A program made the translations under genes and the position numbers. DNA of 45,029 bases from Armatimonadota bacterium (GTDB lineage: Bacteria > Armatimonadota > Fimbriimonadia > Fimbriimonadales > GBS-DC). Where the stretch lies: positions 1-45,029 of the forward strand of contig JBBIQJ010000003.1 in assembly GCA_037442385.1 (NCBI GenBank), read 5' to 3'. Within the stretch, counting starts at the first letter, position 1; each line of letters begins with the position of its first letter. The notes beneath the pieces were generated by a model, which worked only from the letters and a program-made list of their open reading frames with translations, did not search any database and was not told the origin of the DNA. Below, piece after piece: positions 5,830 to 45,029 of the stretch.

Positions 5830-7749
5830 ATGTTAGGGCGGATCTGGCGTTTGATTGTGGGTGCGCCGCTGTCCACTCGGCGGGCGCGCCATGAGCGGCT
5901 GGCGGTGTGGCTGGCGCTGCCTGTGTTTGCCTCGGATGCGCTTTCCTCGTCTGCCTACGCCACCGAAGAGATGAAACTGGTGCTGTGGCAGGCGGGCGAA
6001 GAGGCGTTGCGCATGGCGTTTCCTATTTCCCTGGCAGTGGTGGCGCTGCTGTTTATTGTGGTTTTCTCTTACCGCCAGACCGTGTATGCTTATCCGCAAG
6101 GGGGCGGCGCGTTCAATGTGGCGCGTGAGAATCTGGGCGAGTTCTGGGGATTGCTGGCAGCGTCGGCGCTGCTGGTGGGCTATGTGCTGACCGTAGCGGT
6201 GAGTATCGCTGCGGGCGTGAATGCGATTATTTCCGCCTTCCCCGGAATGCTCCCCTACAGGGTGTTGCTGTGCGTGCTGTTTATTGCATTCATGACCTTC
6301 GTGAACTTGCGGGGCGCACGCGAGTCGGGCGCTGTCTTTGCCCCCCCAACCTACGGCTTTGTGCTGACTTTTGCCCTACTGATTCTGGTAGGGTTAGTGC
6401 GCCGCTTCTCGGGTGATGTGGAGTCGCAACCGTATGAACCCTATCCTGGCACCCTCACAAGCCTAAGCCTGTTGGTGATACTCACAGCGTTCGCGCGGGG
6501 ATGCTCCGCGCTGACAGGAGTGGAAGCCATTTCCGACGGGGTGGCGGCGTTCAAAGAGCCTGCCCCACGCAACGCCGCGAAGACGCTACTGCTGATGGCG
6601 TTCATCCTTTCGGGGCTGGTGCTGGGGATTACCTACATCTCTTCCTATTACCAGGTGCTGCCGCGCGTGAACGAGCATGGCGAGATTGTGGAGACGCTGA
6701 CCTCGCGTATGGCGCGCGCAGTGCTGGAAGGCACACCGTTCGGGTGGTTCTACTATGTGGTGCAGATTGCCACAACTGCGATTTTGATTCTGGCAGCGAA
6801 CACCGCCTATGTAGACTTCCCGCGCCTCTCGTCGATTCTGGCGAACGCACGCTATGCACCCCGCCAGCTGGCGAATCTTGGCGATCGCCTCGTGTTCAAT
6901 AACGGGATTATCCTGCTGGGGGTACTGTCGGCGCTGTTGATTATCTATTTCCGCGGGGACACCCATGCGCTCATTCCCCTGTATGCTGTGGGCGTGTTTA
7001 TTTCGTTCACACTTTCGCAGGCAGGAATGGCGCGCCGCTTCGTGCGAGTACGCCCGCCGCGCTGGCAGGTGGCGATGCTCATCAGCGGCTTCGGCGCCGT
7101 GACGACTTTTCTGGTGTTCATGACCCAGCTGATCGTGAACTTCAGGTATGGCGCGTGGATTACGCTGGTCGCAATTGGGATTGTTATCTTTCTGCTGTAC
7201 AAGGTACACGGGCACTATATGGAAATCAAAGAGCAGTTGCGTCCGATAGCCACCCCACCGCGCCCGATGCGCCATAAGGTGCTGGTCCTGGTGCCTGGCG
7301 TACATCAGGGGGTTTTGAAAGCCCTGGACTACGCCCGCCAGCTGGCAAACCCTGAAGATATCGAAGCGCTCCACATCAATGTGGATCCCCGCCCACCTGC
7401 CGTCTATCGGCGCGTGCTGAAGCGCGGTCCCGATGAAACCCCCGAACTGCGCCTGATGACCCCTGCCGCCGAAAAAATGCAAAAAGAGTGGCAGACCTAT
7501 GTGCCCGATATTCCCCTGCGAATCATCGACTCCGAACACCGCTCCCTGATTGAGCCAATAGAAGACTATATAGACGAGCTTATCGAGAAGGAGCAGTTAG
7601 ACCAGTTGACGGTGATTGTGCCAGAATTCTACCCACGCAAATGGTGGCATCACCTGCTCCATAACCAGTCGGCGTGGATGGTGCGTCTGGCATTGATGAA
7701 GAAACCCAAAGTCGTGGTCAGCACGGTGCGCTATTTCCTGGAGCGATAG
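5830..7749 (+). CDS. APC-superfamily permease, KimA/YdaO-like (probable K+ or amino-acid transporter) with a cytoplasmic C-terminal domain
   Basis: FASDALSSSAYATEE, SYRQTVYAYPQGGG, ALTGVEAISDGV, LIPLYAVGVF, PEF..KWWHHLLHNQ. Confidence 0.87.
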   Translation: MLGRIWRLIVGAPLSTRRARHERLAVWLALPVFASDALSSSAYATEEMKLVLWQAGEEALRMAFPISLAVVALLFIVVFSYRQTVYAYPQGGGAFNVARENLGEFWGLLAASALLVGYVLTVAVSIAAGVNAIISAFPGMLPYRVLLCVLFIAFMTFVNLRGARESGAVFAPPTYGFVLTFALLILVGLVRRFSGDVESQPYEPYPGTLTSLSLLVILTAFARGCSALTGVEAISDGVAAFKEPAPRNAAKTLLLMAFILSGLVLGITYISSYYQVLPRVNEHGEIVETLTSRMARAVLEGTPFGWFYYVVQIATTAILILAANTAYVDFPRLSSILANARYAPRQLANLGDRLVFNNGIILLGVLSALLIIYFRGDTHALIPLYAVGVFISFTLSQAGMARRFVRVRPPRWQVAMLISGFGAVTTFLVFMTQLIVNFRYGAWITLVAIGIVIFLLYKVHGHYMEIKEQLRPIATPPRPMRHKVLVLVPGVHQGVLKALDYARQLANPEDIEALHINVDPRPPAVYRRVLKRGPDETPELRLMTPAAEKMQKEWQTYVPDIPLRIIDSEHRSLIEPIEDYIDELIEKEQLDQLTVIVPEFYPRKWWHHLLHNQSAWMVRLALMKKPKVVVSTVRYFLER

Positions 7750-14260: not shown

Positions 14261-15877
14261 ATGCACTCAGATGACGAAGCTCGCCTGCGCAGTGAACTGG
14301 AGACTCTACAAAGCGAAAATAGTCGGCTCCGTGCGGAGATGGAACAACTCAAGAGGGACTCCGAACAGAAGCGACGACTGGAAGACGAACTTCGTGAGCG
14401 AGAAGCGCGCCTGCAACTGGTGTTGAACCAGCTGCCCGCGATTCTCTGCACCGTTGACTCCCATTTGCGGTTTACTTCGGCAAACGGAGCGGGATTGAGG
14501 CTTCTCGATCTGGATACCGGGCAAATTACAGGAAAGTCGGTAGCGGAAGTGCTGGCACCTCACGACCCGACTCCTGTGCTTGAAGCCCTGGCAGAAGCGC
14601 TGCAGGGGGTCCCAAAGGAGTTCGAGTACGAGTTCAAGAAGCGCCTATTTCAGGTGTGGCTGGAGCCGTTGCGGGGAGCGGATGGAAGTATGGAAGGTAT
14701 TATTGGCTTTGCGATTGACATCACCGACATCCGACGCCTGCAGATGCAGATTGATCAAGCGCAACGGCTGGAGAGCATCGGGCGACTAGCAGGCGGGATT
14801 GCGCATGACTTCAACAATGTGCTGGCGGGAATTAGTGGGTTTGCGGAACTGGCGCAAATGCAGCTCCCCGAGGAGCATCCCGCGCAGTCCTATCTGCGGC
14901 AGATTCGGGATGCCGTCGCGCGCTCCAGCCAGATGGTTAGCCAGCTGCTGGCGTTCGCGCGGCGGCGCGTGATTTATCCCCAACCTATGAGCCTGAATGA
15001 GCATCTCCAGCGCGTGCTGGGGATTTTACAGCAGATTCTGGGAGAAGACATCAAACTTAATTATTACCTGGATGAGCAGCTGGGCACCGTGCGAGCGGAC
15101 CCCGCACAGGTTGAGCAGGTGCTGGTGAATCTGGTCTCCAACGCGCGACAGGCGATGCCCCGCGGCGGCAGTCTCACGATTGAGACCCAGAATGTGGTGC
15201 TGGATGATGCCTATGTGGCAAGCCACTGGCAGGTCAAGCCAGGCGAATATGTGCTGATTGCCATCACCGATACGGGCGAGGGGATTGCTCCCGAACACCT
15301 GCCCCATCTGTTTGAGCCGTTTTACACTACCCATGAGGGGGGCACGGGACTGGGATTGGCGACCGTTCACGGAATTGTCAGCCAGGCGGGAGGCTATGTT
15401 TGGGTTTATAGTGAGCCGGGCAAAGGCACGACCTTCAAAATCTATCTGCCGCGCGTCCACGAGGCACCCCAGCCGCTGGAAAAAGTTCCCAATGAGGCTC
15501 CTGCACAGGGGGACGGAGCGCGCATCTTGCTGGTGGAAGATAACCCCGATGTGCTGGAGACCACCGCCGCGCTGTTGCGCTCTCTTGGCTATTCCGTTCA
15601 AACGGCTACCATGCCCAGTGAGGCAATGGCAATTGCTCAGTCGCATCCGATTGACCTGCTGATTACCGATGTGGTGCTACCTCAGATGCGCGGTAGTGCG
15701 CTCGCCCAGACCCTGCAAGCGTCGCACCCGAAGATGAAAGTGCTTTACATCTCAGGGTACACGGAGAATAGCATTATCGAGCAGGGCGAGCTAAAGCCGG
15801 GCGTGGCGTTTCTAGCGAAGCCTTACACGCTGAGCCAGCTCGCCGCCAAAGTGCGCGAAGTGCTAACACAGCCCTGA
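14261..15877 (+). CDS. Soluble hybrid sensor histidine kinase (coiled coil-PAS-HisKA-HATPase-REC, CckA-like architecture)
   Basis: AGGAG SD; [54 protein letters not shown]. Confidence 0.92.
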
Positions 15878-34886: not shown

Positions 34887-36839
34887 ATGCGTTGGAGGCT
34901 GCTGCTTTTGGGGATGGTTTGCGCATCTGTTTGGGCGCAGAGCGCCCTGAATCCCAGCGAAGACGAGAGGCTGAACCAGAAATTCTCGGTGCGTGCTGTG
35001 GGGTTGCCCTTGCGCGACCTGCTGACACAACTGAGCCAGCGCACGAAGGTCGCGCTCAAAGTAGAGCCAGCTCTGCAGGAGTATCGTGCGTGCCTGTACG
35101 CGAAAGAGAAGCCTTTGAGCGAAATTCTGCGCCATCTGGCGGAGGCGTTCGGGTTTTATTGGAAACGCGAAAAACCCTCTGAAGAGGAGCCGTACCAGTA
35201 TCGCCTTGTCGCGCCGCCCGTGGAAAAGGCTGCGACTCGTGAGAGCGACCTGGGCGTGTTTCGTGAGAAGGTGCTGGCGCCCGTGTGCGCGCAACTGCAG
35301 ATACCGATTGAGGCGCGATTAGAACAGCTCAAGCAGGTCGCGGAGCAGGGAGGGGGCACGCCCTCTCCAAAAGAGCTGGAGGCGTTGATGCCCGTATTTC
35401 GTTCCGTAGACCCGCTTAGCCTTGCGGCGTGGCACGCCCTCTGCCAGATGAGGGAAGACGAATGGCACCGACTGGCACAGGGAGAGGCGCTCTTCTTCAG
35501 CACGCGCGTTCCCAACCAGATTCCCCCCAGAGCGATAGACGAGTGGAAAGCCGTGATGGGGGAGATCTTGAAATCTGATGAAAATGAGCATGGCGCAGGC
35601 GAGGGGCGCCTGCACCAGTTGGCGAAGCTTAAGACCGCCAATGAACTGCGCGCAATGGTGCGATATGATGCGAGCGACAAAGCCCTCAAAGTCGCTTACG
35701 AAGCGCTGGCGGATGGAAACCCGGTGGTTGTGGACAGATCGCAGTCTGCCTTTCCTGAGATAATCCTCTGGACTGTTCGTGAGCCTGTTCGCCGAACGCT
35801 ACACCAGGAACCGGAACCGACCTTACCTGCGAAGCACCCTGTGCTTTCGCGCGCCCTCACCCAGTTCAAAGAGCCAGGTCCTCACGACGACTGGTTCCAG
35901 TGGCTTTCGGAGCTGATGGTGCAAATGGCAGAAACAACCGATGCGCCTCTGGCAGCCGAGTATTACCCCCTGCAGACCGACTCGATAGTGATGCAGGACT
36001 GGTACAGATACCGCCCCCGCCTGCCACAGGATTGGTACGCTTTTCAGAATTTGCTACGGGTATTTGGTTATCGCACTCGGCTGAGCGACTCCGGCTGGGT
36101 GGTGATAGAGAGCCGTCAGCGCGAATATGCCCGCGAGAACGACATCCCCCATCCTGTATTGCAACGCTGGCTATTCAAACCCAACCGTCGGGGCGTGCTC
36201 ACTTTCGACGAGTGTGCCGAGGTGGCGGTGCTTTCATCGTATCAAAGAGACGCGCTTTATATGTATATTCAGTCCTTTGCGTATCTGAACGACCTGCTTG
36301 GAGGGGTTGTTCCGTATGTTCCTGCGGAGCTGGATTTCCTGCACGGGGGATTACTGTATGCCCAACGCACGATTGTTTGGCTTCAGTGGGAGCGTGGTTC
36401 TACCCTGCCTGCGCCCCTGCCTGAAGAGGGCATTCTGTACGCGATGCAGCTCTATGCTTCGCTCAAGCCCGCCCAGCGCACCCAGTTGCGGGCAGGGGGG
36501 CTCCCGTTCAACCAGCTGACCCCAGCCCAGCAGTGGCTGTTTCTGCTGGCGTACACGCGGGGCAACCTGCTAACGCTGGACGACTTCTGGCTGCCACCAG
36601 CCCAGTTGCAAGCACGGATGCAGAGCGCCTCTATGCGCCTTATGAGTGAAACCCGCGTCCAGGAAGGTGTGCGCATCCCCGCTGACCAGAAGCCACCCAT
36701 CCGTACGCTGGAAGACTGGAAGCGCTACCATCGCCAGGTGCGTCTTGAGAAAACCCCCATGCGTGTTCAGGTGTGGCGGTTTGAACTGCAGTGGGGCGAG
36801 GATAGACGCGAGATTGTGCTGGAACTGCCTGTGAAGTGA
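34887..36839 (+). CDS. Hypothetical secreted protein with N-terminal secretin/STN-like segment
   Basis: Signal peptide (MRWRLLLLG...AQ); RLNQKFSV....PLRDLL.QLSQRT.V.L.V resembles STN/N0 domains; the rest is unrecognised. Confidence 0.7.
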   Translation: MRWRLLLLGMVCASVWAQSALNPSEDERLNQKFSVRAVGLPLRDLLTQLSQRTKVALKVEPALQEYRACLYAKEKPLSEILRHLAEAFGFYWKREKPSEEEPYQYRLVAPPVEKAATRESDLGVFREKVLAPVCAQLQIPIEARLEQLKQVAEQGGGTPSPKELEALMPVFRSVDPLSLAAWHALCQMREDEWHRLAQGEALFFSTRVPNQIPPRAIDEWKAVMGEILKSDENEHGAGEGRLHQLAKLKTANELRAMVRYDASDKALKVAYEALADGNPVVVDRSQSAFPEIILWTVREPVRRTLHQEPEPTLPAKHPVLSRALTQFKEPGPHDDWFQWLSELMVQMAETTDAPLAAEYYPLQTDSIVMQDWYRYRPRLPQDWYAFQNLLRVFGYRTRLSDSGWVVIESRQREYARENDIPHPVLQRWLFKPNRRGVLTFDECAEVAVLSSYQRDALYMYIQSFAYLNDLLGGVVPYVPAELDFLHGGLLYAQRTIVWLQWERGSTLPAPLPEEGILYAMQLYASLKPAQRTQLRAGGLPFNQLTPAQQWLFLLAYTRGNLLTLDDFWLPPAQLQARMQSASMRLMSETRVQEGVRIPADQKPPIRTLEDWKRYHRQVRLEKTPMRVQVWRFELQWGEDRREIVLELPVK

Positions 36840-36864
36840 AGCCTTTTCTCTGTTCCCTCGTCAA
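36838..36864 (+). promoter_or_regulatory. ECF-type promoter GAAGC-N16-CGTCAA upstream of alpha-2-macroglobulin
   Basis: Same spacing as the motif upstream of the ECF gene. Confidence 0.45.
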
Positions 36865-36896
36865 ACCAATAGTACAACCGGGAGGGAACCGAAGGG

Positions 36897-39800
36897 ATGT
36901 TCACATCGCGATGGCGGCACGGATTGCTGGGCGTTGTGATTCTCGTGCTGGTGCAGTTCTATGCCGTTGCAGAGTTGATTCAAAACGAACCGCCTCGAGG
37001 TACGCTGATGGGGCACGTGTTTTCCAGTCGCACGCTCCAGCCCATTCCCAGAGCGGAAGTCAGGCTGGTGCTGCAGAAGCGCCTGCCCGAAAAATCTCCC
37101 GAAGGCTCGCAACGCAGGGCGCTTTTGCGGGAGCAGGGACGGATTGAAGAAGACCGCGATGAGGTGGGTTCCATCTGGTCGGTGCGCACGGACGCTCAGG
37201 GACGGTTCGCACTGCGCGGGATTCCTGCGGGGGTCTATCGGCTCTCTGCCTACTCTCAAGCGCATTCGCTTCGAAACCCGCCTTACCATGACGAGATCGA
37301 GGTCGCCATTCCCGAAGGCACGCGTGTGGAGAAAGACCTCTACCTCCAGCCGGACTCGGACTTTATGGAGCTGATTTATCCGCAGGCTGTTTACTACCCC
37401 AATGAACCCCTGAAGATAGGCGTGCGCGGCTTCACGCAGGAAGACGAGATGGAGGTGACTCTGCTTGCGCTCAAAGGCAATCGCGCCCCTTCGCAACGAC
37501 TGATGCGCCTACTGGAGACCCTGCGCTTCGGCTGGTGGCACTCCTCCAGAGAGCTGCGCGAGGCGATGGACACGCTTGCCGATGCGTTCCAGCCCTTGTG
37601 GTCGCAACGGATGCCGATTACTGGGCGCGATCCAGAAGGGGTGTTCACACGCTACATCGAGTTGCCGCGCCAGCCTGAGGGGGTCTATCTCGCCCGTATC
37701 GTTGCAGGCGAACTGGAACGCGCCGCAGTGGTGGTCGTCAGCCGATTTGGGATTGTTTTCAAGCAAGACGGCGAACAGATGGAGTTCTGGTGCGCCGACC
37801 TCAAAACGGGGCAGCCTGTGCCCGATGTGCCTTTACAGCTCTGGGAGTCGCCCGGACGCACGCTCCAGAAACTGGGCGAAGGGCGCACCGACGCGCAGGG
37901 ATTTTGGCGCGTTCAGGAAGGCAGAGGCGAAAGGATTTACCTTTTCGCGCTCTCTCCCGACGGCGCACGCCTTATTCACTGGGCGTCGGGCTACAGTTAC
38001 AGGCGCAGCGACACCCCCCTGTATGGAGCAATCTACACCGACCGACCCATCTACCGCCCTGGGCACGCCATTCACTATAAGGGCATCGTACGCCTGCAAA
38101 CCCCACAGGGCTACACCATCCCGCCCCCCAACACCCCGGTGGAGGTGGAAGTGGTAGATCCCCGCGATGAGACCTATACGAAGCAAACCCTCACACTCAA
38201 CGAGTACGGCGCATTCTCTGGCGCTTTCACCCTGTTGCCCGAATCGTCCACAGGATATTACACCATATTTGCTAAAGTGGGTGACTACGGCACGATTGAT
38301 CAAAGCATCCCTGTGAGCGCCTATCGTAAGCCGAGCTACCGCATTCAGGCGCGCCCCAGTAAAGCCTTCTATCTCGAAGACGAAACAATAGAGGTGGAGG
38401 TCTACACCGAATACTACTTCGGCATGCCCGTGCCGAACACGAAAATCGAGTATGAGGTCTATCGTGAGCCACGGATTTCGGACGATTACGGCTGTATTGT
38501 GTGCAACGGACCGCCGTGGCAGGAGACGGGCGGGGTTTATGGTGAGGAGGTGCTGACAGGCGAGGCAACGACCGATGGGCAGGGACGCCTGACGCTCCGA
38601 TTCCGTGCGCGCGACCTGCTCCCCAAACAAGAGACCGAAACGCTTGGGACGGAGCCGTACCCCTTCACGCTGAGCCTGTCGGGCCTAAGCGAGGGCTGGG
38701 AAGCAGCAAAAGCCAGAGTGAAGTTTTCCGTAGCGCCATGTGTGTGGGAAATCCGCATCAAGCCCGAATACTGGTTCGGCGAGCCGAATCAACCGTATCG
38801 TGTCGAAGTGCAGGTGCGGGACCTGCGCACGAACCAGCCCGTGCAGACCACCCTGCAGGTGAAGGTGGGGCGCTTCACATGGGCAGGACGCTATCGCGTA
38901 ACGGAATATCCCTTCCGCCAGGCAATTCAGACCGATGCCCACGGTAAAGCCGTTCTGGACTGGACACCCCCCGAATCGGGCGACTGGCAGCTGGTGGTCT
39001 CGGCTCAGGACCCCACAGGCAGGCGATGTGAGGAAAGCGCCACGCTCTGGGTTTTTGAGCGCACCTATCGGGGTGGGGAAGTATCTGATTCCCGCAACCC
39101 CCTGGAAGTGCGCCTACAGAAAGAGCATTATATGCCCGGAGAGAGCGTGGAGGTTGCCATTCGTTCGCCCTACCCTGACGCGGTATATTATGTAAGTCTG
39201 GAGGGCGAGCGGCTTTTTCAGTCGAGGATTGTGAAGGTGACAGGGAGCCTTACCCGCGTGAGAATCCCGCTCACCGAGGCGCAAATCCCCACTGCCTATG
39301 TGAGCGTATGCATGGTGCGCAACAAACAGCTCTATCAGCGCACACTGAATGTGTCGGTGGGCACACAGGACACGGAACTCAACATCAGGGTTCAGACCGA
39401 CCGCACTCACTATGCGCCGCGCGACACCGTGCAGGTGCGCATTCAAACCACCGATGCGCAGGGGCGTCCCGTTCCTGCAGAACTCTCGCTGGCGGTGGTG
39501 GACGAGGGCATCTACGCGATTATGGAAGATGACCCCCATCGGCTGCGCCATGCCTTCTATGCGCACAGGTCTAACAGGGTGTACACCAGCTTCTCAGCGC
39601 CCTATCTGGCGCTTCAGGGCGACAAGGGTGAAGCGGAAGATACACGCCGCAACTTCCCCGACACCGCCTTCTGGCTGCCTCACCTGCGCACCAATCCACA
39701 GGGTGTCGCGCAAGCCACCTTCCGCCTGCCCGATAACCTGACCGAGTGGCGGCTCACCGTATGGGGGCACACGCTGAAAACGCAGGTCGGCTACGCAAAA

Positions 39801-41798
39801 GCCGCCATCAAAAGCGCCAAGGACCTGATGGTGCGCCTGCGCACGCCCCTGTGGCTGGTGGAAGGCGATAAAACCGAACTCAGCGCGATTGTGAGCAACA
39901 ACACTAATCAACCCCAAACCGTGCAGGTGGTGTGGCATACGCCCGAAGGCACGCAGAGCCAGCAGTTGACCGTCGCGCCCAACGACTCGCGCACGCTGAG
40001 CTACCCCTATCGCGCTCGCAAAGTGGGCATGCAAACGATTCGGGTTTCCGCGCGAGAGGTCAACGGCAGGCTCCGCGATGCGGAAGAGCGCCGTTTTGAG
40101 GTCAAATCCGCCGCCACGCCGCAGGTCGCCACGCGCGTGATGCTTCTCAATGGGGAGCGCCAGATGGTGATGAACCTGCTGCCCGACAGCCGCCTCGAAT
40201 TAGGCACGCTGGAGATAGAGGTTCAACCGACGCTGCTTCAGTTTTTGACCGCGCGGCTGGACTATCTGATAGAGTACCCCTACGGCTGTGTGGAGCAAAC
40301 AGTGAGCCGTTTTGTGCCTGCGGTGCTGGCGCGGCAGGTCTATCGGCATCTGGGCGAGCCGATGCCCCCTGAACTGGAGGAGCGCGTGGAAGCGGCGCTC
40401 AAAGCAGGGCTTCAGCGCCTGTCGGAGCTGGAAGCGCCCGAAGGCGGCTGGGGCTGGTGGGAATCTGAAAAGCCAGAGCCATGGATTACCGCCTATGCCA
40501 TGCGCGGCTTGTATCTGGCGAAACAGGCGGGTGTATCCATACCTGAACCGCTCTACGAACGCGGGCTGAGCGTACTCCGACACATGGCAGACTCGGAAGT
40601 GCGAAAATACCGTGAGGCGCTACAGGAGGTACCGTCGCCCTCAACAGACGACCTGCTGCGCGTGCTGGAAGCCCTGGCGGAGATGGGCGAGCCAGCTCCC
40701 GATGCGATCCGCAAAGAGCCAACTCTGCTGAGCCGCATGACCCAGCAAGCCCTCAACACACGGGGGCGCTGGTTTTATCAGCCGCGCCTACAATTGATGA
40801 GGCTCATGGTTCACTGGTCGGATTTGCCTGACGCTCGCAAGCACCTGCGCGCGCTCTGGAATGCCCTGCAAAGCGATTACCGCGAGACCGCCGACGCCCT
40901 CTACTGGTTCCGTGAGGAGCGGAACGAGTTGTTCGTAGAGAGGGTAGTGAGTCAGGCGCGGGCACTGCGGCTGCTGCTGAAGCTGGAGCCGTTCCTCAGC
41001 GAGCTGAACCTGACACCGCGGCGCTATCGACCGATGGTGGAAAAGACTGCGCTGGGGCTGGTGTTGATGCATTACGGCGAGGCGTGGTACTCCTCTTACG
41101 ACACCGCGCTCGCAATCGAAGCGCTGCTGGCGTACATTCAGCGCTATGAGGCAATCAATTCTCGTGGCAACCCTCGTGTGCATGTGTGGGTGAACGACAA
41201 GCCCGTGCCCGCGTTTGAGGGCAAAGTGCGCCTGCAGAGCGAATGGCTACGCAGGGGTGAGAACCTGATTCGCCTGCGTGCGGAAAGCGGTGTGCCGATT
41301 GTGGTCGCGCGGCTCACCAGCTGGCGTCCGCTCACCTATGCAGAGGGGCAGTCGGGAGTTATCCGAATGCGCCTTTACGCGCTCCAGCCGTCGCAGGATG
41401 TGCTGACACCTTCCGAAACGCTCCGCCCCATTCCGCTGGGGGGCGTCGTGCGCGCGGGCACGCTCCTTCGGGTCGAGGTGGAACTCACACGCCCACGCAA
41501 TGTGTCTGACTGGGACTACTCGGTGCTGGAGGCGCCATTCCCTGCAGGCTGCGCGCCCGTGGACACCGAGGCGTTTCTGAAAGCGGGCTGGTGGGCGAGC
41601 GACTACAGCGAGATACGGGACGACCGCGCGCTCAGCTTCCAGTCCCGCTGGTGGTGGTACGACGACACCAAACGGTTTGTGTTTCTGGTGCGTGCGGAGG
41701 TGCCTGGCGAATACAGCATACTGCCGGCGCGCCTGTGGGGGATGTATGCGCCGTTCAGCGTCTCCAGCGAGGCGTTTCGGATTGTGGTGCAGGAGTGA
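36897..41798 (+). CDS. Bacterial alpha-2-macroglobulin family protein (thioester-containing)
   Basis: YTDRPIYRPG, AELSLAVVDEGI, RRNFPDTAFW.P, LPDNLTEWR, YPYGCVEQT (thioester, 40287-40298), GGWGWW, IRDDR, PG.Y...PA...MY. Confidence 0.93.
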   Translation: MFTSRWRHGLLGVVILVLVQFYAVAELIQNEPPRGTLMGHVFSSRTLQPIPRAEVRLVLQKRLPEKSPEGSQRRALLREQGRIEEDRDEVGSIWSVRTDAQGRFALRGIPAGVYRLSAYSQAHSLRNPPYHDEIEVAIPEGTRVEKDLYLQPDSDFMELIYPQAVYYPNEPLKIGVRGFTQEDEMEVTLLALKGNRAPSQRLMRLLETLRFGWWHSSRELREAMDTLADAFQPLWSQRMPITGRDPEGVFTRYIELPRQPEGVYLARIVAGELERAAVVVVSRFGIVFKQDGEQMEFWCADLKTGQPVPDVPLQLWESPGRTLQKLGEGRTDAQGFWRVQEGRGERIYLFALSPDGARLIHWASGYSYRRSDTPLYGAIYTDRPIYRPGHAIHYKGIVRLQTPQGYTIPPPNTPVEVEVVDPRDETYTKQTLTLNEYGAFSGAFTLLPESSTGYYTIFAKVGDYGTIDQSIPVSAYRKPSYRIQARPSKAFYLEDETIEVEVYTEYYFGMPVPNTKIEYEVYREPRISDDYGCIVCNGPPWQETGGVYGEEVLTGEATTDGQGRLTLRFRARDLLPKQETETLGTEPYPFTLSLSGLSEGWEAAKARVKFSVAPCVWEIRIKPEYWFGEPNQPYRVEVQVRDLRTNQPVQTTLQVKVGRFTWAGRYRVTEYPFRQAIQTDAHGKAVLDWTPPESGDWQLVVSAQDPTGRRCEESATLWVFERTYRGGEVSDSRNPLEVRLQKEHYMPGESVEVAIRSPYPDAVYYVSLEGERLFQSRIVKVTGSLTRVRIPLTEAQIPTAYVSVCMVRNKQLYQRTLNVSVGTQDTELNIRVQTDRTHYAPRDTVQVRIQTTDAQGRPVPAELSLAVVDEGIYAIMEDDPHRLRHAFYAHRSNRVYTSFSAPYLALQGDKGEAEDTRRNFPDTAFWLPHLRTNPQGVAQATFRLPDNLTEWRLTVWGHTLKTQVGYAKAAIKSAKDLMVRLRTPLWLVEGDKTELSAIVSNNTNQPQTVQVVWHTPEGTQSQQLTVAPNDSRTLSYPYRARKVGMQTIRVSAREVNGRLRDAEERRFEVKSAATPQVATRVMLLNGERQMVMNLLPDSRLELGTLEIEVQPTLLQFLTARLDYLIEYPYGCVEQTVSRFVPAVLARQVYRHLGEPMPPELEERVEAALKAGLQRLSELEAPEGGWGWWESEKPEPWITAYAMRGLYLAKQAGVSIPEPLYERGLSVLRHMADSEVRKYREALQEVPSPSTDDLLRVLEALAEMGEPAPDAIRKEPTLLSRMTQQALNTRGRWFYQPRLQLMRLMVHWSDLPDARKHLRALWNALQSDYRETADALYWFREERNELFVERVVSQARALRLLLKLEPFLSELNLTPRRYRPMVEKTALGLVLMHYGEAWYSSYDTALAIEALLAYIQRYEAINSRGNPRVHVWVNDKPVPAFEGKVRLQSEWLRRGENLIRLRAESGVPIVVARLTSWRPLTYAEGQSGVIRMRLYALQPSQDVLTPSETLRPIPLGGVVRAGTLLRVEVELTRPRNVSDWDYSVLEAPFPAGCAPVDTEAFLKAGWWASDYSEIRDDRALSFQSRWWWYDDTKRFVFLVRAEVPGEYSILPARLWGMYAPFSVSSEAFRIVVQE

Positions 41799-41813
41799 GG
41801 CTTTCATGGCACA

Positions 41814-42027
41814 GTGAGGTATACGGCTACGGATGGTGCCAGCCGCGTATGGCGCGGATGCTGGCGCCGTGCTGATGCCGGGGCGGGGGGTGTGCATCAA
41901 TATCGGCGACCCGTTCGCCTGAGCGGTCGTCTATGGGCAATACGCGGAGCGACGACGAAATGGAACCCAGAGGCTCGTCTAAGGAGTGGATTCTGAATAT
42001 TGCCTTCAATCGCTGGTAGTATAACCG
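41814..42027 (+). pseudogene. Decayed, internally deleted copy of the downstream methylase-endonuclease pair
   Basis: Three colinear blocks: 41814-41839 ~ 42973-42998 (promoter and M start); 41841-41942 ~ 43175-43275 (internal M, +1 indel, TGA); 41944-42027 ~ 44240-44323 (M end/R start, TAG). Confidence 0.92.
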
Positions 42028-42147
42028 TTTTCTGTTCGCGATGAACCTGCCTGTGGCGGACTGGGAGCAGATGGAGCAGGGGACGATTCGGGGAGTGCTT
42101 GAAGAGTAAATTCACTTTTCTCCACCACAAGGTATACTCCCCACGCT

Positions 42148-42951
42148 ATGTGGGAGTTCGTCCAGTCGCTGTGGGAGCGTCATCTCGATACGGTGCTGGC
42201 GAGCGCGGGCAAAATTCTGCTCGTGTTGCTGGGCGCAGCAGTGGCTCGCTGGATTGGCGGGCGCGCCATTCATGCGACCGTCGCCGCGCTCACCCGAAAA
42301 ATAGAGCTCTCCTCCCGACGGCAGGCGCAGGTGCAGACCATCACCGCGCTGCTGGTGAGCGTGCTGAACTATGTGCTGCTGTTCGTGGTGATTTTCACGA
42401 TTCTAAGCATTCTGGGGGTCAATCTGGGTCCTGTGCTGGCGACGGCGGGGGTGGCGGGGCTTGCCATCAGCTTCGGCGCCCAGCAGATTGTGCGTGATGT
42501 GCTGAACGGCTTTTTTATTCTCGTGGAAGACCAGTTCGCGGTGGGCGAATATGTCACGATTGATGGTGTCAGCGGCGTGGTGGAAACGATGGGCATGCGT
42601 ATCACCCGCATTCGCGACGATTCGGGCAGACTCATCACGCTCGCCAACAGCAGCATTACCCGTGTGATCAACCATAGTCGCGGCGAGCAGAAGATTGCGA
42701 TTGAAGTCGGGATTGCCAGCACGATAGAGCTGAACTCCGCCCGTCAGTGGCTGGAGCAGAGCCTCGCCGCGTTCGAACATCCTTCCCTGAAGACCCCACC
42801 CTCCCTCGAGGGACCGCTCACGCTGGAAGCCAGCCGTTATCTGTTTCGCATCACAGCGGGCGCGGAGCCGTCAGCGGGTACAATTGTGCAGGACGCCCTG
42901 CGCGCCCATCTCTTGCAGAGCGCCCGACAACACCAGATACCGCTCGCCTAG
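42148..42951 (+). CDS. mscS: Small-conductance mechanosensitive channel family protein (YbiO/YkuT-like)
   Basis: LATAGVAGLAISFGAQQIVRDVLNGFFILVEDQFAVGEYV, G.VE.MGMRITRIRD.SG.L....N. Confidence 0.92.
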   Translation: MWEFVQSLWERHLDTVLASAGKILLVLLGAAVARWIGGRAIHATVAALTRKIELSSRRQAQVQTITALLVSVLNYVLLFVVIFTILSILGVNLGPVLATAGVAGLAISFGAQQIVRDVLNGFFILVEDQFAVGEYVTIDGVSGVVETMGMRITRIRDDSGRLITLANSSITRVINHSRGEQKIAIEVGIASTIELNSARQWLEQSLAAFEHPSLKTPPSLEGPLTLEASRYLFRITAGAEPSAGTIVQDALRAHLLQSARQHQIPLA

Positions 42952-42991
42952 GCGCAACGGCTCGTGTATGCGGTGAGGTATACTGCTACGG

Positions 42992-44278
42992 ATGGCGCTA
43001 ACCGACACCTGCGCGGCAAAGGTTTACCTCGCCGATAGTCGGAACATGGCGGAGACGCCCAGTGAAAGCGTCGCGCTTGTCGTCACCTCGCCCCCCTACT
43101 GGCATATCAAAGACTACGGCGTGCCCCATCAGATCGGCTACGGGCAAACCTTGCACGAGTATCTGTACGACTTGAGCCGCGTATGGCGTGAATGCTGGCG
43201 CGTGCTGATGCCGGGGCGGCGGTTGTGCATCAATATCGGCGACCAGTTCGCCCGCGCAGTAATCTATGGGCAATATAAGGTGATCCCGCTCCATGCAGAG
43301 ATAATTGCGCAGTGCGAAACAATAGGCTTTGATTACCTGGGCGCTATCATCTGGCAAAAGAAGACCACGATGCGTCCTTCAGGGGGAGCGGTGGTGATGG
43401 GGTCTTTTCCCTATCCGCCGAACGGTATCGTGGAGCTGGATTACGAGTATATCTTGCTGTTTCGTAAACCGGGCAAAGGGGCGTCTCCTTCGCCCGAAGT
43501 GCGAGAAGCGTCGGTGCTTACTACAGACGAGTGGAAGACCTTTTTCAGCGGGCACTGGCAGTTTGCTGGCGAGCGACAGGCGTTTCATGAGGCGATGTTC
43601 CCTGAAGAGTTGCCGCGCCGACTGATACGGATGTTCTCGTTTGTGGGGGAAACTGTGCTGGACCCGTTTGTAGGGAGCGGCACAACGCTCAAAGCGGCGC
43701 TTGAATTGAACCGTAATGCAATTGGCTACGAGATACAGGTAGACTACCTGCCCCTGATTCGTCAGCGGCTGGGGATGGACAGCCTGCTCCCCCCGAGAGT
43801 GAGCATTTACCAGCGTGGGGAGGCGCTGCCTCCCGTAGAGCCGCCAGAGGGGTACGCGCCCCGTATCAAAGATGCCACGCCCCTGATAGAGCCGAAGCAG
43901 GTGCGTGTGGAACCTGAGGCGACCTATCGAGTCGTGGGGGTTGCTCATTTTGCGGCAGGAAACCCTGTCCTGCTCACGGAAGAGGGGCTGCAGGTTGCCC
44001 TGCTGGGCGTGCGGGTTCCTGCGGCGCTTCAAGAGCAGGCTTTAGGATATTTGAAAACTTATGTAGTCGGCAAAAGAGTGCTATTGCGGTTTGAGTGCCC
44101 CCATGAAAGCGCAGGACAGCCTGTGCCCGTGTACCTTTATCTGACCAATCGGTTGTTTGTGAATCGAAAAATGATCGAGATGGGGCTGGCAGAGGCGGAC
44201 AGGGAGCGTGAGTACCGCTATCGCGAGCGGTTTATTGAGGCGGAGCGACGACGAAATGGAACCCAGAGGCTCGTCTAA
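42992..44278 (+). CDS. Type II DNA methyltransferase, beta class (probably N4-cytosine), with C-terminal SNase-like domain
   Basis: LVVTSPPY precedes H.AMFPEELPRRLI.MFS..GETVLDPFVGSGTT (beta order); about 120-aa extra C-terminal domain. Confidence 0.9.
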   Translation: MALTDTCAAKVYLADSRNMAETPSESVALVVTSPPYWHIKDYGVPHQIGYGQTLHEYLYDLSRVWRECWRVLMPGRRLCINIGDQFARAVIYGQYKVIPLHAEIIAQCETIGFDYLGAIIWQKKTTMRPSGGAVVMGSFPYPPNGIVELDYEYILLFRKPGKGASPSPEVREASVLTTDEWKTFFSGHWQFAGERQAFHEAMFPEELPRRLIRMFSFVGETVLDPFVGSGTTLKAALELNRNAIGYEIQVDYLPLIRQRLGMDSLLPPRVSIYQRGEALPPVEPPEGYAPRIKDATPLIEPKQVRVEPEATYRVVGVAHFAAGNPVLLTEEGLQVALLGVRVPAALQEQALGYLKTYVVGKRVLLRFECPHESAGQPVPVYLYLTNRLFVNRKMIEMGLAEADREREYRYRERFIEAERRRNGTQRLV

Positions 44279-44945
44279 GGAGTGGATTCTGAATATTGCC
44301 TTCAATCGCTGGCAATATAACCGCCCGCACTATGTGGGCAAGCTCTCGGAAAGCATCCGTGAATGTGCCCCCCGCACACTGGAAGAATGGGAGCGCTACT
44401 ACTTTGAAAAAGTGCGTCCCACGCAAAAGATGCTGGCTGACACGATGGAGGAACACCTCAACGAGATAGGACGCAGGCTTTATGTCAAAATCAGTGAACA
44501 GCTCCGTGCCGAGATAGAGGCAATTACCGAAGAAGACTGTATTCAGTATGTGTATGAGGTGGTAATAAAGCGCACTTTTGAGGGTTATCTCAGAGAGAAG
44601 AAGACCGTTTACGAGCAACTGGAGACGCTTCTGCAAGTTAAGATGGAACCTGCGCCTGATGAGTGGGACAGGAAATACAACATAGACTTCTACATCAAGG
44701 TGGGTGAGCGCTACATCGGTATTCAGATCAAGCCGGTGAGCTACGCGCAGCTCCCTGAAGCACACAAGTGGCATGAGTGGATGGCAGAGTCGCATCGCCG
44801 ATTTGAGAAACAGGTGGGTGGGCGGGTCTTTATTGTATTTTCAATCAAGAAGGATAATACCAGGCAAATTGCCAACCCCGAAGTGGTAGACGCAATTCGT
44901 GAAGAGATAGCGCGTTTGCGCAGAGAACAGGGGCTTTCAGAATAG
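44256..44945 (+). CDS. Type II restriction endonuclease, MjaI-like family
   Basis: KEWILN.A.NRW, VG..SE.IR.C.P..LEEW..YY, D.KYNIDFYI......IGIQIKP (PD-QxK variant); overlaps the methylase 3' end by 23 bp. Confidence 0.8.
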   Translation: MEPRGSSKEWILNIAFNRWQYNRPHYVGKLSESIRECAPRTLEEWERYYFEKVRPTQKMLADTMEEHLNEIGRRLYVKISEQLRAEIEAITEEDCIQYVYEVVIKRTFEGYLREKKTVYEQLETLLQVKMEPAPDEWDRKYNIDFYIKVGERYIGIQIKPVSYAQLPEAHKWHEWMAESHRRFEKQVGGRVFIVFSIKKDNTRQIANPEVVDAIREEIARLRREQGLSE

Positions 44946-44950
44946 TCCCC

Positions 44951-45029
44951 CAGAAGATTGCGATTGAAATTGGGTTTGACCGCTCACGCTGGAAGCCGGT
45001 CGTTATCTGTTTCGCGTCACAGCGGGCGC
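44951..45029 (+). pseudogene. Decayed, internally deleted copy of the mscS 3' half (runs off the window end)
   Basis: 44951-44978 ~ 42688-42715 (3 mismatches) joined to 44978-45029 ~ 42812-42863 (3 mismatches). Confidence 0.9.

Follow-up and report, generated by a model that had tools for sequence, protein, structure and literature searches.

The window analyzed here is a single 45,029-nt contig of a metagenome-assembled genome (MAG) of an Armatimonadota bacterium (JBBIQJ010000003.1, positions 1 to 45,029; assembly G000). Close to its end, it carries what is, judged from its sequence, a minimal type II restriction-modification (R-M) unit of about 2.0 kb, consisting of a -10 promoter block, a beta-class methyltransferase gene (M), and an MjaI-family endonuclease gene (R). 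The left end of the putative mobile unit is a leaderless-type promoter block (42973 to 42991, + strand), with GGTATACT located 7 nt upstream of the M start codon. This block was identical at 25 of 25 positions in G000 and in the related genomes G003 and G002 and at 22 to 23 of 25 in the fossil copies described below. M (42992 to 44278, + strand) encodes a 428-residue beta-class N4/N6 DNA methyltransferase (Pfam N6_N4_Mtase, 7.9e-41, 140.8 bits), in whose translation we read the motifs TSPPYW and DPFVGSGTT (TSPPY, FVGSG). It ends in a C-terminal extension of about 130 residues without a significant match among PDB sequences; an SNase domain considered for this extension was rejected (E 0.058, below cutoff). 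R (44256 to 44945, + strand) overlaps the 3' end of M by 23 nt and encodes, from the ATG at 44256, an MjaI-family restriction endonuclease of 229 residues (Pfam RE_MjaI, 6.2e-48). It covers profile positions 1 to 163 of 164 of RE_MjaI (PF09568) with 163.2 bits against a cutoff of 22.7, and its start codon is conserved in relatives. Between M and its G002 counterpart we counted 107 synonymous and 33 nonsynonymous codon differences, which argues that the live genes are under purifying selection. Each genome examined harbored one live M-R copy.

In the excerpted text of two published studies, MjaI cuts CTAG and M.MjaI is a beta-class m4C enzyme (PMC2615612, PMC5867850). We assign the pair a putative CTAG specificity with m4C modification, specificity and enzyme activity both being predicted from family membership. 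CTAG is depleted in the genome, with 588 sites in 2.47 Mb (observed/expected ratio, 0.18).

The left neighbor of the old R-M site described below is an alpha-2-macroglobulin-like gene, A2M (36897 to 41798, + strand; Pfam MG2, A2M, A2M_BRD, TED, and bMG10). An intact channel gene, mscS (42148 to 42951, + strand; 267 residues; Pfam MS_channel_2nd, 1.1e-18), precedes the R-M unit; it differs from the G003 gene by 14 synonymous codons and 1 nonsynonymous codon. We found no recombinase gene in the M-R unit, no transposase or integrase gene between A2M and the contig end, no terminal inverted repeats around the insert, and no tRNA in the G003 and G002 loci. A transposon- or integrase-borne island was rejected on these grounds.

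Interlocked remnants around the intact genes

The original prediction had described a spliced R-M remnant before the intact mscS and a spliced mscS remnant after the intact R-M genes. Both were recovered. In an assembly-wide comparison, positions 41814 to 42027 resolved into three pieces of the intact M-R pair (42992 to 44945), and positions 44951 to 45029 resolved into two pieces of the mscS 3' end; in a self-comparison of the window, all copies lay on the + strand, direct and colinear, as had been claimed.

The first fossil piece (41814 to 41845, + strand; 28/32 identical to 42973 to 43004) contains the M promoter block and start codon, with a mutated -10 box that reads TATACG in G000 and TATAGG in G003 compared to TATACT in the live copy. 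The second (41841 to 41942, + strand; 91/101 identical to 43175 to 43275) covers approximately M codons 62 to 95, is 89% identical over 102 nt (E 3e-30 when all 2.47 Mb of the assembly were searched), and carries a 1-nt insertion and an in-frame stop. The third (41944 to 42027, + strand; 82/84 identical to 44240 to 44323) comprises the last 39 nt of M and the first 68 nt of R (E 4e-34; longest exact run, 73 nt) and has a TAG in place of a CAA of R. At the joint between the first two pieces, we noted the microhomology A(A/G)CCG.

Between this fossil and mscS lies the gene that had been left as X in the predicted M-R-X-mscS unit. It proved to be the remnant of a vapB(C) toxin-antitoxin pair, namely, the last 25 codons and the stop of the antitoxin gene vapB (42032 to 42109, + strand; tblastn match to VapB residues 52 to 76 at 92%). 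The 5' part of vapB and all of vapC are deleted in G000 and intact in G003 (PIN domain, E 1.5e-11).

On the other side, the last 265 nt of mscS (42688 to 42952) represent the duplicated target, of which 169 nt are retained in the duplicate, mscS'. Its first piece (44951 to 44978, + strand; equivalent to 42688 to 42715) starts 5 nt past the R stop; a possible microhomology (ATAGTC) near this joint was discarded as unconvincing, being offset by 9 nt. The second piece (44978 to 45029, + strand; equivalent to 42812 to 42863; 49/52, E 4e-15) is cut by the contig end. In its complete form it measures 141 nt and matches at 136 of 141 positions in a 143,849-nt metagenome contig (L028) and at 140 of 141 in G003.

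Where the mscS stop meets the R-M unit, junction alignments delimited a novel joint (42952 to 42972, + strand) containing about 20 nt that match neither parent flank; a search for their source returned no match longer than 15 to 17 nt anywhere in the genome. A CTAG site lies on this junction (42948 to 42951), where the ancestral sequence is CATAG, and it is the only one in 27 kb. Just upstream of the unit, G000 and G003 differ at 3 of 13 positions at the live copy and at 4 of 13 at the fossil. The 13 to 20 nt upstream of the unit thus evolve unusually fast, and the apparent filler could be a diverged original spacer.

Because the window is the entire contig and ends inside the mscS remnant, the finding stops at the assembly end, and we considered whether the interlocked repeats might be a chimeric join of strain variants made during metagenome assembly. 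The contig indeed breaks off 13 nt into a 53-nt exact repeat, and it resembles G003 from about 41.2 kb to its end, unlike the next contigs. About 1.3 kb is missing from the MAG (the remainder of mscS', dinB, and the 5' part of alr): dinB was not found in the G000 bin, and alr begins at codon 140 on another contig (C210). A BLAST search of positions 41601 to 45029 against all 220 contigs of the 2.47-Mb assembly matched only the repeats within the contig. Against an artefact, L028, of which 3,319 nt were analyzed, is 100% identical to window positions 42459 to 45029, carries the right half of the architecture, and runs through the window end: there mscS' extends a further 89 bases as far as the mscS stop, and a 9-nt spacer then leads into dinB. 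Furthermore, the same architecture with identical piece boundaries lies in the interior of a 292,721-nt contig of G003, including the same 96-nt deletion in mscS', and in the interior of a 263,308-nt metagenome contig. The copies differ by 2 to 12% and are thus not collapsed identical repeats, and the deletions specific to G000 (vapB 5' part and vapC) indicate that its sequence was not simply taken over from the G003 assembly. Were there a chimeric join at 41.2 kb, it would bear only on the cross-species transfer discussed below, since every element of the architecture is located to the right of that position. We consequently regard an assembly artefact as very improbable.

Ancestral order and origin within the lineage

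The gene order in a sister genome was a check set beforehand, with M-R-X-mscS as the expected ancestral state. G002, which belongs to the same genus, shows precisely this order, with mscS directly before dinB: A2M, M, R, A2M', vapB, mscS, a 9-nt spacer, and dinB. G001 harbors mscS-dinB-alr without R-M genes. Hence the mscS|dinB site is empty in two of the two other genomes of the genus (G002 and G001), each with one mscS 3' copy. Together, this order and these empty sites suggest that the mscS|dinB boundary received its copy of the pair from the A2M site.

The G002 pair is followed by A2M', a duplicate derived from the 3' part of A2M (about 41559 to 41702), which is 80.6% identical over 144 nt (51 residues at 71%, E 9e-23). 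By-eye reading of the alignment suggested an original span of roughly 245 nt. In G003, the fossil is bordered on one side by the A2M stop and on the other by the tail of the same A2M' fragment, making it the positional counterpart of the intact G002 pair; the A2M' tails of G003 and G002 are identical at 48 of 74 positions. We read the A2M' duplicate as the mark of an older event of the same kind as the mscS duplication. No empty A2M|vapB site was found that would prove this older insertion.

Over 217 columns, the fossil matched the resident live pair at 201 positions and the G002 pair at 189; the second copy arose, therefore, within this lineage. It might alternatively have come from outside, with a related strain's M-R fragment inserting at mscS|dinB and the redundant resident pair decaying. 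The 20 nt upstream of the live unit are unlike the spacer upstream of the fossil, the pair occurs in varied contexts in nine loci of other genera (after tRNA-Arg in G004; with uvrC on one side and an aminotransferase gene on the other in G018), with no mscS found in any of the nine, and the composite locus itself seemingly crossed between species. Nevertheless, among the copies examined, the live pair is closest to the resident fossil (201/217, compared to 198/217 for the G002 pair over the same columns), and the pairs of other genera reach only 68 to 80% identity in protein or DNA comparisons. So close a donor would itself be a member of the lineage, which only shifts the question elsewhere. 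We thus consider an outside origin improbable.

The composite locus lies in a tract of about 5 kb that is 93 to 100% identical to G003, compared to a background of 82 to 89%. Three-way sliding identity and alignment placed the left edge of this tract at 41200 to 41245 (no strand assigned), with 79 to 93% identity to its left and 93 to 100% to its right. Judging by this mosaic, the locus appears to have crossed between species. Since only two lineages carry the architecture and share it via one tract, a single event accounts for it.

Routes to the second copy

From gene order, flanks, and identities, we conclude that the R-M pair very probably relocated, with the A2M site as its origin and the mscS|dinB boundary as its destination. 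Our explanation as a whole, in which this relocation took place by a one-step copy-and-paste event with long target duplication, we hold at a probability of roughly 55%. The unit would first have been seated between A2M and vapBC, with the duplicated A2M 3' end already at its side. A second copy would then have landed, in the lineage of G003 and this contig, some 1.9 kb farther downstream and precisely on the mscS|dinB boundary, duplicating the last 265 bp of mscS, so that the intact mscS now stands before the pair and the truncated duplicate stands after it, keeping the ancestral junction to dinB. One example of such a route is replicative template switching, in which replication leaves the mscS end for the neighboring donor copy and re-enters mscS 265 bp upstream of the position where it had left. 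Because the live copy would have provided methylation in trans, the old one could have decayed freely: deletions would have cut it to three pieces, the mscS duplicate would have lost 96 bp, and G000 would further have lost most of vapBC.

The original prediction offered either a tandem duplication or an insertion with long target duplication. Both fit, and the two were not separated decisively; the one-step and two-step routes predict almost the same end state. In the two-step route, a unit of about 3.5 kb (M-R-A2M'-vapBC-mscS), with breakpoints 19 to 20 nt upstream of M and 1 nt past the mscS stop, would have been duplicated head to tail; reciprocal loss would then have stripped copy 1 of most of M-R, and copy 2 of A2M'-vapBC as well as the 5' 540 nt of mscS. 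The ancestral M-R-vapB(C)-mscS order seen in G002, the direct and colinear copies, the presence of just one novel joint, linking the mscS end with the M start, the fossil being nearest to the resident pair, and the same deletion-spliced look of both dead copies are all in agreement with this route, and tandem duplications and deletion bias are common among bacteria. Indeed, neighboring donor and target sites and colinear copies are just what a single tandem duplication would produce, which counts against our preference for one step.

Nevertheless, copy 2 lacks A2M', vapBC, and the 5' part of mscS, and its two surviving pieces both derive from the final 265 nt of about 1.8 kb of dispensable DNA. 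M-R and mscS are represented among the complementary leftovers, whereas no trace of the intervening genes remains in the 5 nt between the R stop and mscS'. The roughly 20 unmatched nt at the joint, unrelated to either flank, also argue for one step. A perfect 3.5-kb repeat would presumably collapse readily before two complementary deletions could become fixed. Finally, under serial tandem duplication the older A2M/A2M' pair would need a third R-M fossil upstream of A2M, and none was found there; one candidate, a 28-nt match (36701 to 36728, E 0.006), was rejected as a conserved part of a 650-residue upstream protein, the same stretch being present in a genus-g5 ortholog without R-M genes nearby. 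The older duplicate beside the unit, with no fossil upstream of A2M, hence also favors one step, as does G018, where a homologous pair is flanked by a perfect 75-nt direct repeat. Among the nine other-genus loci, a DNA-level flanking duplicate adjoining the unit was detected only in G018. A translated search of 11 relatives' loci (these nine, G002, and G003) found a duplicate in G018 and G002, other matches being weak and not adjacent. G018 offers no clean empty site because its region downstream of uvrC differs from all seven relatives compared. We therefore favor the one-step mechanism, at about even odds, over a full tandem duplication later trimmed, which we regard as possible but rather unlikely.

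A stronger version of the one-step reading is quite doubtful in our view. According to it, the pair would be an autonomous, recombinase-free mobile unit with its left end at the -10 block, which made at least two hops in this lineage, first to the A2M 3' end and later to that of mscS, each duplicating part of the 3' end of the upstream gene (265 bp at mscS; 144 nt still detectable at A2M). The second hop would have been copied from the neighboring donor, CTAG cleavage would have helped form the joint, and the locus would then have invaded a sister species by homologous recombination in the flanks. Were this version true, insertion with long target duplication would for the first time be represented by a donor together with its product, and its mechanism would become testable.

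The repeats leave the two nested recombination routes that had been proposed, and the coordinates confirm their geometry. A crossover between mscS and mscS' would delete 2,166 bp and restore the empty site. A crossover between the fossil and live R-M copies in the third fossil piece would delete 2,296 bp comprising mscS and M, leaving R behind a promoter with a mutated -10 box. Gene conversion between mscS and mscS' has occurred in G003; these repeats thus do recombine. Through the interlocked repeats, the housekeeping gene mscS is bound to an addiction module, given that mscS-deleting recombination would also remove the methylase and leave the nuclease.

Relation to known systems

Type II R-M pairs act as selfish mobile elements, and the locus bears on how recombinase-free pairs move. 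In one place it records the decayed donor, the target duplication alongside the new copy, an earlier duplication at the previous site, and signs of ongoing recombination between the repeats, and two relatives show the empty site. It reduces the candidate mechanisms to two, namely, a local replicative event and a tandem duplication trimmed afterwards, and it illustrates that such a hop can reorder neighboring genes.

Rearrangement by tandem duplication and random loss is a model of gene-order change from animal mitochondrial genomes. The change from M-R-X-mscS to mscS-M-R, with pseudogene pieces at complementary positions, resembles it. Here, however, the setting is a bacterial chromosome, the mover is a selfish addiction module, and the leftovers expected from the intervening genes are missing in copy 2.

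Insertion of R-M gene complexes with long target duplication was reportedly described by Nobusato et al. in 2000. In the excerpted text of the later survey by Furuta, Abe and Kobayashi (2010, PMC2853133), such insertions are recognized by R and M lying inside the insert, an insert of <20 kb without other mobile elements, and a duplication of >30 bp. All of these features are present here: the insert (42953 to 44950) holds only M and R and, at about 2.0 kb, has no room for another gene, and the 265-nt duplicated target is single at the empty sites of G002 and G001, directly before dinB. As in the published cases excerpted there, the R-M pair has neither transposase nor integrase, the direct repeats on its two sides greatly exceed transposon target duplications in length, and the repeated sequence is single in an empty-site relative. 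The 265-bp length falls among the 46 to about 420 bp published, and the repeat extends over the upstream gene's 3' end, which is also true of the Haemophilus influenzae cases (PMC2853133).

Four features set the present locus apart from the cases in that excerpted text. The same genome preserves a decayed donor copy roughly 1 kb upstream, which gives the event the look of a local copy-and-paste rather than of an import; the old site is itself bordered by a second, earlier duplication (A2M'); the repeats show their age, being 85 to 99% identical and carrying internal deletions; and the host is a thermophile-type Armatimonadetes MAG, from a phylum absent from the survey's list as excerpted. In the same text, insertion with long target duplication was inferred solely from presence/absence comparisons (PMC2853133).

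Amplification of R-M complexes via flanking long direct repeats is cited as demonstrated in the excerpts of PMC2853133 and PMC3031569. The mscS/mscS' direct repeats (141 nt, 96 to 99% identical) likewise bracket the pair and could drive unequal crossing-over, excision, or amplification, whereas no copy-number variant was observed here and the genomes examined have one live copy each. With respect to the enzymes, the locus is similar to the CTAG-specific MjaI, MthZI, and BfaI systems: R spans the full RE_MjaI profile, its partner is a beta-class methyltransferase with an SPPY-type motif, and CTAG is strongly depleted. It departs from the MjaI type in the length of M, which at 428 residues has about 130 additional C-terminal residues, M.MjaI homologs being 303 to 364 residues long in the excerpted sources (PMC2615612, PMC5867850). 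Overall, the locus is a natural example of a behavior known in kind rather than a new system.

Remnants around the restriction-modification pair

We searched positions 36000 to 45029 for repeats and compared 41601 to 45029 by BLAST with the whole 220-contig assembly of the Armatimonadota MAG (GCA_037442385.1, here G000). This end of the window carries an A2M-like gene (36897 to 41798), mscS (42148 to 42951; MS_channel_2nd, E 1.1e-18), a beta-class methyltransferase gene, M (42992 to 44278; N6_N4_Mtase, E 7.9e-41), and an MjaI-family endonuclease gene, R (44256 to 44945; RE_MjaI, E 6.2e-48, with the profile covered in full). The original prediction placed a restriction-modification remnant before the intact mscS, and indeed three pieces of the live M-R pair were found in 41814 to 42027 (hereafter the fossil). 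Piece a (41814 to 41845) matches 42973 to 43004 at 28 of 32 positions, piece b (41841 to 41942) matches 43175 to 43275 at 89% over 102 nt (E 3e-30), and piece c (41944 to 42027) matches 44240 to 44323 (E 4e-34). The mscS remnant expected after the intact pair, mscS', was likewise recovered as two pieces in 44951 to 45029, which make up the final 79 bases: 44951 to 44978 matches 42688 to 42715, and 44978 to 45029 matches 42812 to 42863 at 49 of 52 positions (E 4e-15). As predicted, both searches showed every copy in direct, colinear arrangement, and BLAST found nothing similar to the remnants on the other G000 contigs.

M has an extra C-terminal region of about 130 residues (43862 to 44275), conserved among family homologs (tblastn to residue 399); it gave a subthreshold match to SNase, an OB-fold nuclease (E 0.058), and no sequence relative of it was found in the PDB. 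Of the 12 GGTATA(C/A)T motifs in the window (e.g., at 42131, 42977, 18843, and 11309), 8 are followed 6 to 10 nt later by the start codon of an 86- to 428-aa ORF. M, mscS, and vapB in the same-genus genome G003 are among the genes with this motif ahead of the start. Leaderless or near-leaderless transcripts are thereby suggested as a habit of this organism.

The window, which is the entire contig C3, ends within the mscS' repeat, and the MAG lacks dinB and codons 1 to 139 of alr; the next contigs after C3 are C210 and C21. A pattern scan found the R/mscS' joint on two metagenome contigs. The matching part of the first (L028, 3319 nt of a 143,849-nt contig) is 100% identical to 42459 to 45029 and runs 748 nt past the window end, covering the remainder of mscS' as far as the mscS stop, then a 9-nt spacer, dinB, and the first part of alr; the second equals G003.

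Identity between G000 and G003 is 79 to 93% in 150-nt windows from 39153 to 41241 and 93 to 100% from 41242 to 45029, and L028 is 98.3% identical to G003 over 3319 nt; other regions compared give 86 to 89%. In the 5' part of A2M (91 to 98%, windows 39153 to 39741) and in alr (91.9%), G000 is nearer to another same-genus genome, G002. Either homologous recombination in A2M and alr recently carried the whole composite locus from the G003 lineage into that of G000, or C3 is chimeric, with sequences of two co-occurring species meeting near 41.2 kb. G000 has deletions of its own (the 5' part of vapB, and vapC), which shows that the contig does not simply duplicate the G003 assembly. The G003-like tract contains the interlocked architecture in full, and G003 provides an independent assembly of it; the finding is real.

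Gene order in sister genomes and age of the second copy

A DNA search of 40 relatives, together with fetched regions, yielded three informative genomes of the same genus (G001, G002, and G003). Well inside a 292,721-nt contig, G003 has the order A2M, fossil, A2M' tail (A2M' being a duplicate of the 3' part of A2M), vapB, vapC (PIN domain, E 1.5e-11), mscS, M, R, mscS', dinB, alr, and it shares with G000 both the three fossil pieces and a 96-nt internal deletion of mscS'. The order in G002 is A2M, M, R, A2M' fragment, vapB, vapC stub, mscS, 9-nt spacer, dinB, alr; its A2M' fragment matches 41559 to 41702 (144 nt at 80.6%; 51 aa at 71%, E 9e-23). G001 has mscS-dinB-alr. The ancestral order M-R-X-mscS, which had been predicted for sister genomes, thus exists in G002, and both same-genus genomes without the new copy (G001 and G002) have nothing inserted between mscS and dinB.

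By its sequence, the stretch labeled X in that prediction is a vapBC toxin-antitoxin locus. It is intact in G003 (reverse complement of locus L013, 2932 to 3600) and cut in G002 to vapB plus 24 vapC codons (locus L014, 6175 to 6473), and all that G000 keeps (within 42028 to 42147) is the last 25 codons of vapB (42032 to 42109). The deletions in G002 and G000 are independent. The R gene of G002 shows an apparent 1-nt deletion in an A run near codon 193 (L014, about 5845 to 5917), after which the tblastn match goes on in a different frame; true loss of function, phase variation of the tract, or a sequencing error may lie behind it. G000 (contig C210), G002 (L014, 8971 to 9786), and G003 (L013, 3840 to 4655) each carry a second, solitary N6_N4-type methyltransferase gene (271 aa) three genes downstream, beyond dinB and alr.

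The A2M stop forms the left boundary of the fossil in G003, and on its right the fossil meets the tail of the A2M' fragment found after R in G002; this tail is identical between the two genomes at 48 of 74 positions, the level expected for neutral DNA between them. These bounds make the fossil the positional counterpart of the intact G002 pair. Of the 217 bases that could be aligned, the G000 fossil shares 201 with the resident live pair, 189 with the G002 pair, and 208 with the G003 fossil; in the same columns, the live and G002 pairs share 198. M differs between G000 and G002 by 107 synonymous and 33 nonsynonymous codons, so that neutral divergence from G002 is far above the 7% separating fossil and live pair. 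The second copy therefore arose within the G000/G003 lineage, well after the split from G002. We regard its arrival from an outside donor as unlikely.

Recombination between the repeats and restriction context

The two nested recombination routes proposed from the window have the right geometry. A crossover between mscS and mscS' would remove 2166 bp and restore the empty site, and one in piece c would remove 2296 bp, with loss of mscS and M but not of R. To judge from post-segregational killing by R-M systems, loss of M in this way should kill the cell, provided that R is active. mscS' matches mscS at 140/141 positions in G003 (longest exact run, 136 nt) and at 136/141 in the G000 type represented by L028 (53 nt); piece c matches the live copy at 82/84 in G000 (73 nt) and 79/84 in G003 (37 nt). 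In this 141-nt part of mscS', G003 has three derived substitutions (window-equivalent 42861, 42903, and 42913), all present in both its mscS and mscS', while the other base is retained in G002 and in the two G000 copies, indicating at least one gene-conversion event in G003.

MjaI is described as specific for CTAG in PMC2615612, and M.MjaI and its relatives as beta-class m4C enzymes in PMC5867850; CTAG is presumably also the target of the neighboring R. It is depleted in the G000 genome (588 sites, O/E 0.18). The CTAG at 42948 to 42951, the sole one in 27 kb (previous at 15812), overlaps the stop codon of mscS precisely where the novel joint falls, and the equivalent site reads CATAG in mscS' of both lineages and in G002 mscS. 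Other 4-base palindromes are also depleted (GGCC, O/E 0.06; ACGT, 0.09; GATC, 0.33; CCGG, 0.39), and tblastn with M gave partial similarity on seven other G000 contigs. Further restriction systems, past or present, are suggested in this genome.

Possible insertion with target duplication

Homology between mscS and mscS' stops one base past the stop codon; mscS' starts 5 nt past the R stop and is followed by the ancestral spacer and dinB. Downstream of intact mscS come about 20 nt matching neither flank and then a promoter block, which begins 19 nt ahead of the M start codon and is 25/25 identical in G000, G003, and G002 and 22 to 23/25 in the fossils. From the joint positions on both sides, the inserted unit thus measures about 2.0 kb, with nothing in it but the promoter, M, and R. 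Of the 265 nt of target that were duplicated (42688 to 42952), 169 remain. The old site shows this geometry too: its flanking A2M/A2M' pair, at about 80% identity, is the older duplication. The window insertion has every feature by which insertion with long target duplication was recognized in the work of Furuta, Abe and Kobayashi (PMC2853133).

We consider one-step copy-and-paste, in which the unit would have been placed at the mscS|dinB boundary with target duplication, to have a probability of about one half. The original interpretation is supported; the route it put first, tandem duplication and then loss, here with [M-R-A2M'-vapBC-mscS] as the unit and deletions complementary between the copies, would give the same end state and has in its favor that the donor adjoins the target. 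However, no leftover of vapBC, A2M', or the 5' part of mscS lies between R and mscS', the joint contains unmatched nucleotides, and a 3.5-kb perfect tandem repeat would be unstable. The older A2M' duplicate would moreover need a further fossil upstream of A2M, and none exists; the lone candidate match there belongs to a conserved stretch of the protein encoded upstream. We thus regard this route as possible but the less probable of the two.

The spacers just upstream of the promoter block (42953 to 42972; 41799 to 41813) change much faster than their surroundings, and those at the three junction types are mutually unrelated. Between G000 and G003, the 13 to 20 nt upstream of the unit differ at 3/13 positions at the live copy and 4/13 at the fossil, in a tract with 1.6 to 4% difference. 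Because this segment evolves abnormally fast, the filler at the joint may be a diverged spacer, which counts against one-step insertion.

The M-R pair occurs in many different contexts across the family. In G018, from another genus, the homologous pair has uvrC on one side and a class-V aminotransferase gene on the other, and the 3' end of the aminotransferase gene supplies a perfect 75-nt direct repeat that brackets the pair (locus L017, 6986 to 7060 and 9117 to 9191); a clean empty site was not obtained among the seven relatives compared, because the region downstream of uvrC differs from that in all seven. In G013 (locus L024) and G010 (locus L025), a frameshifted M without R occupies a common site, and in G004 (locus L018) the pair begins directly after a tRNA-Arg(tct) gene.

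Overall, the window locus is not a new kind of system but a well-preserved case of a known behavior of restriction-modification gene complexes, extended here by a donor that survives as a fossil and by another, older target duplication.
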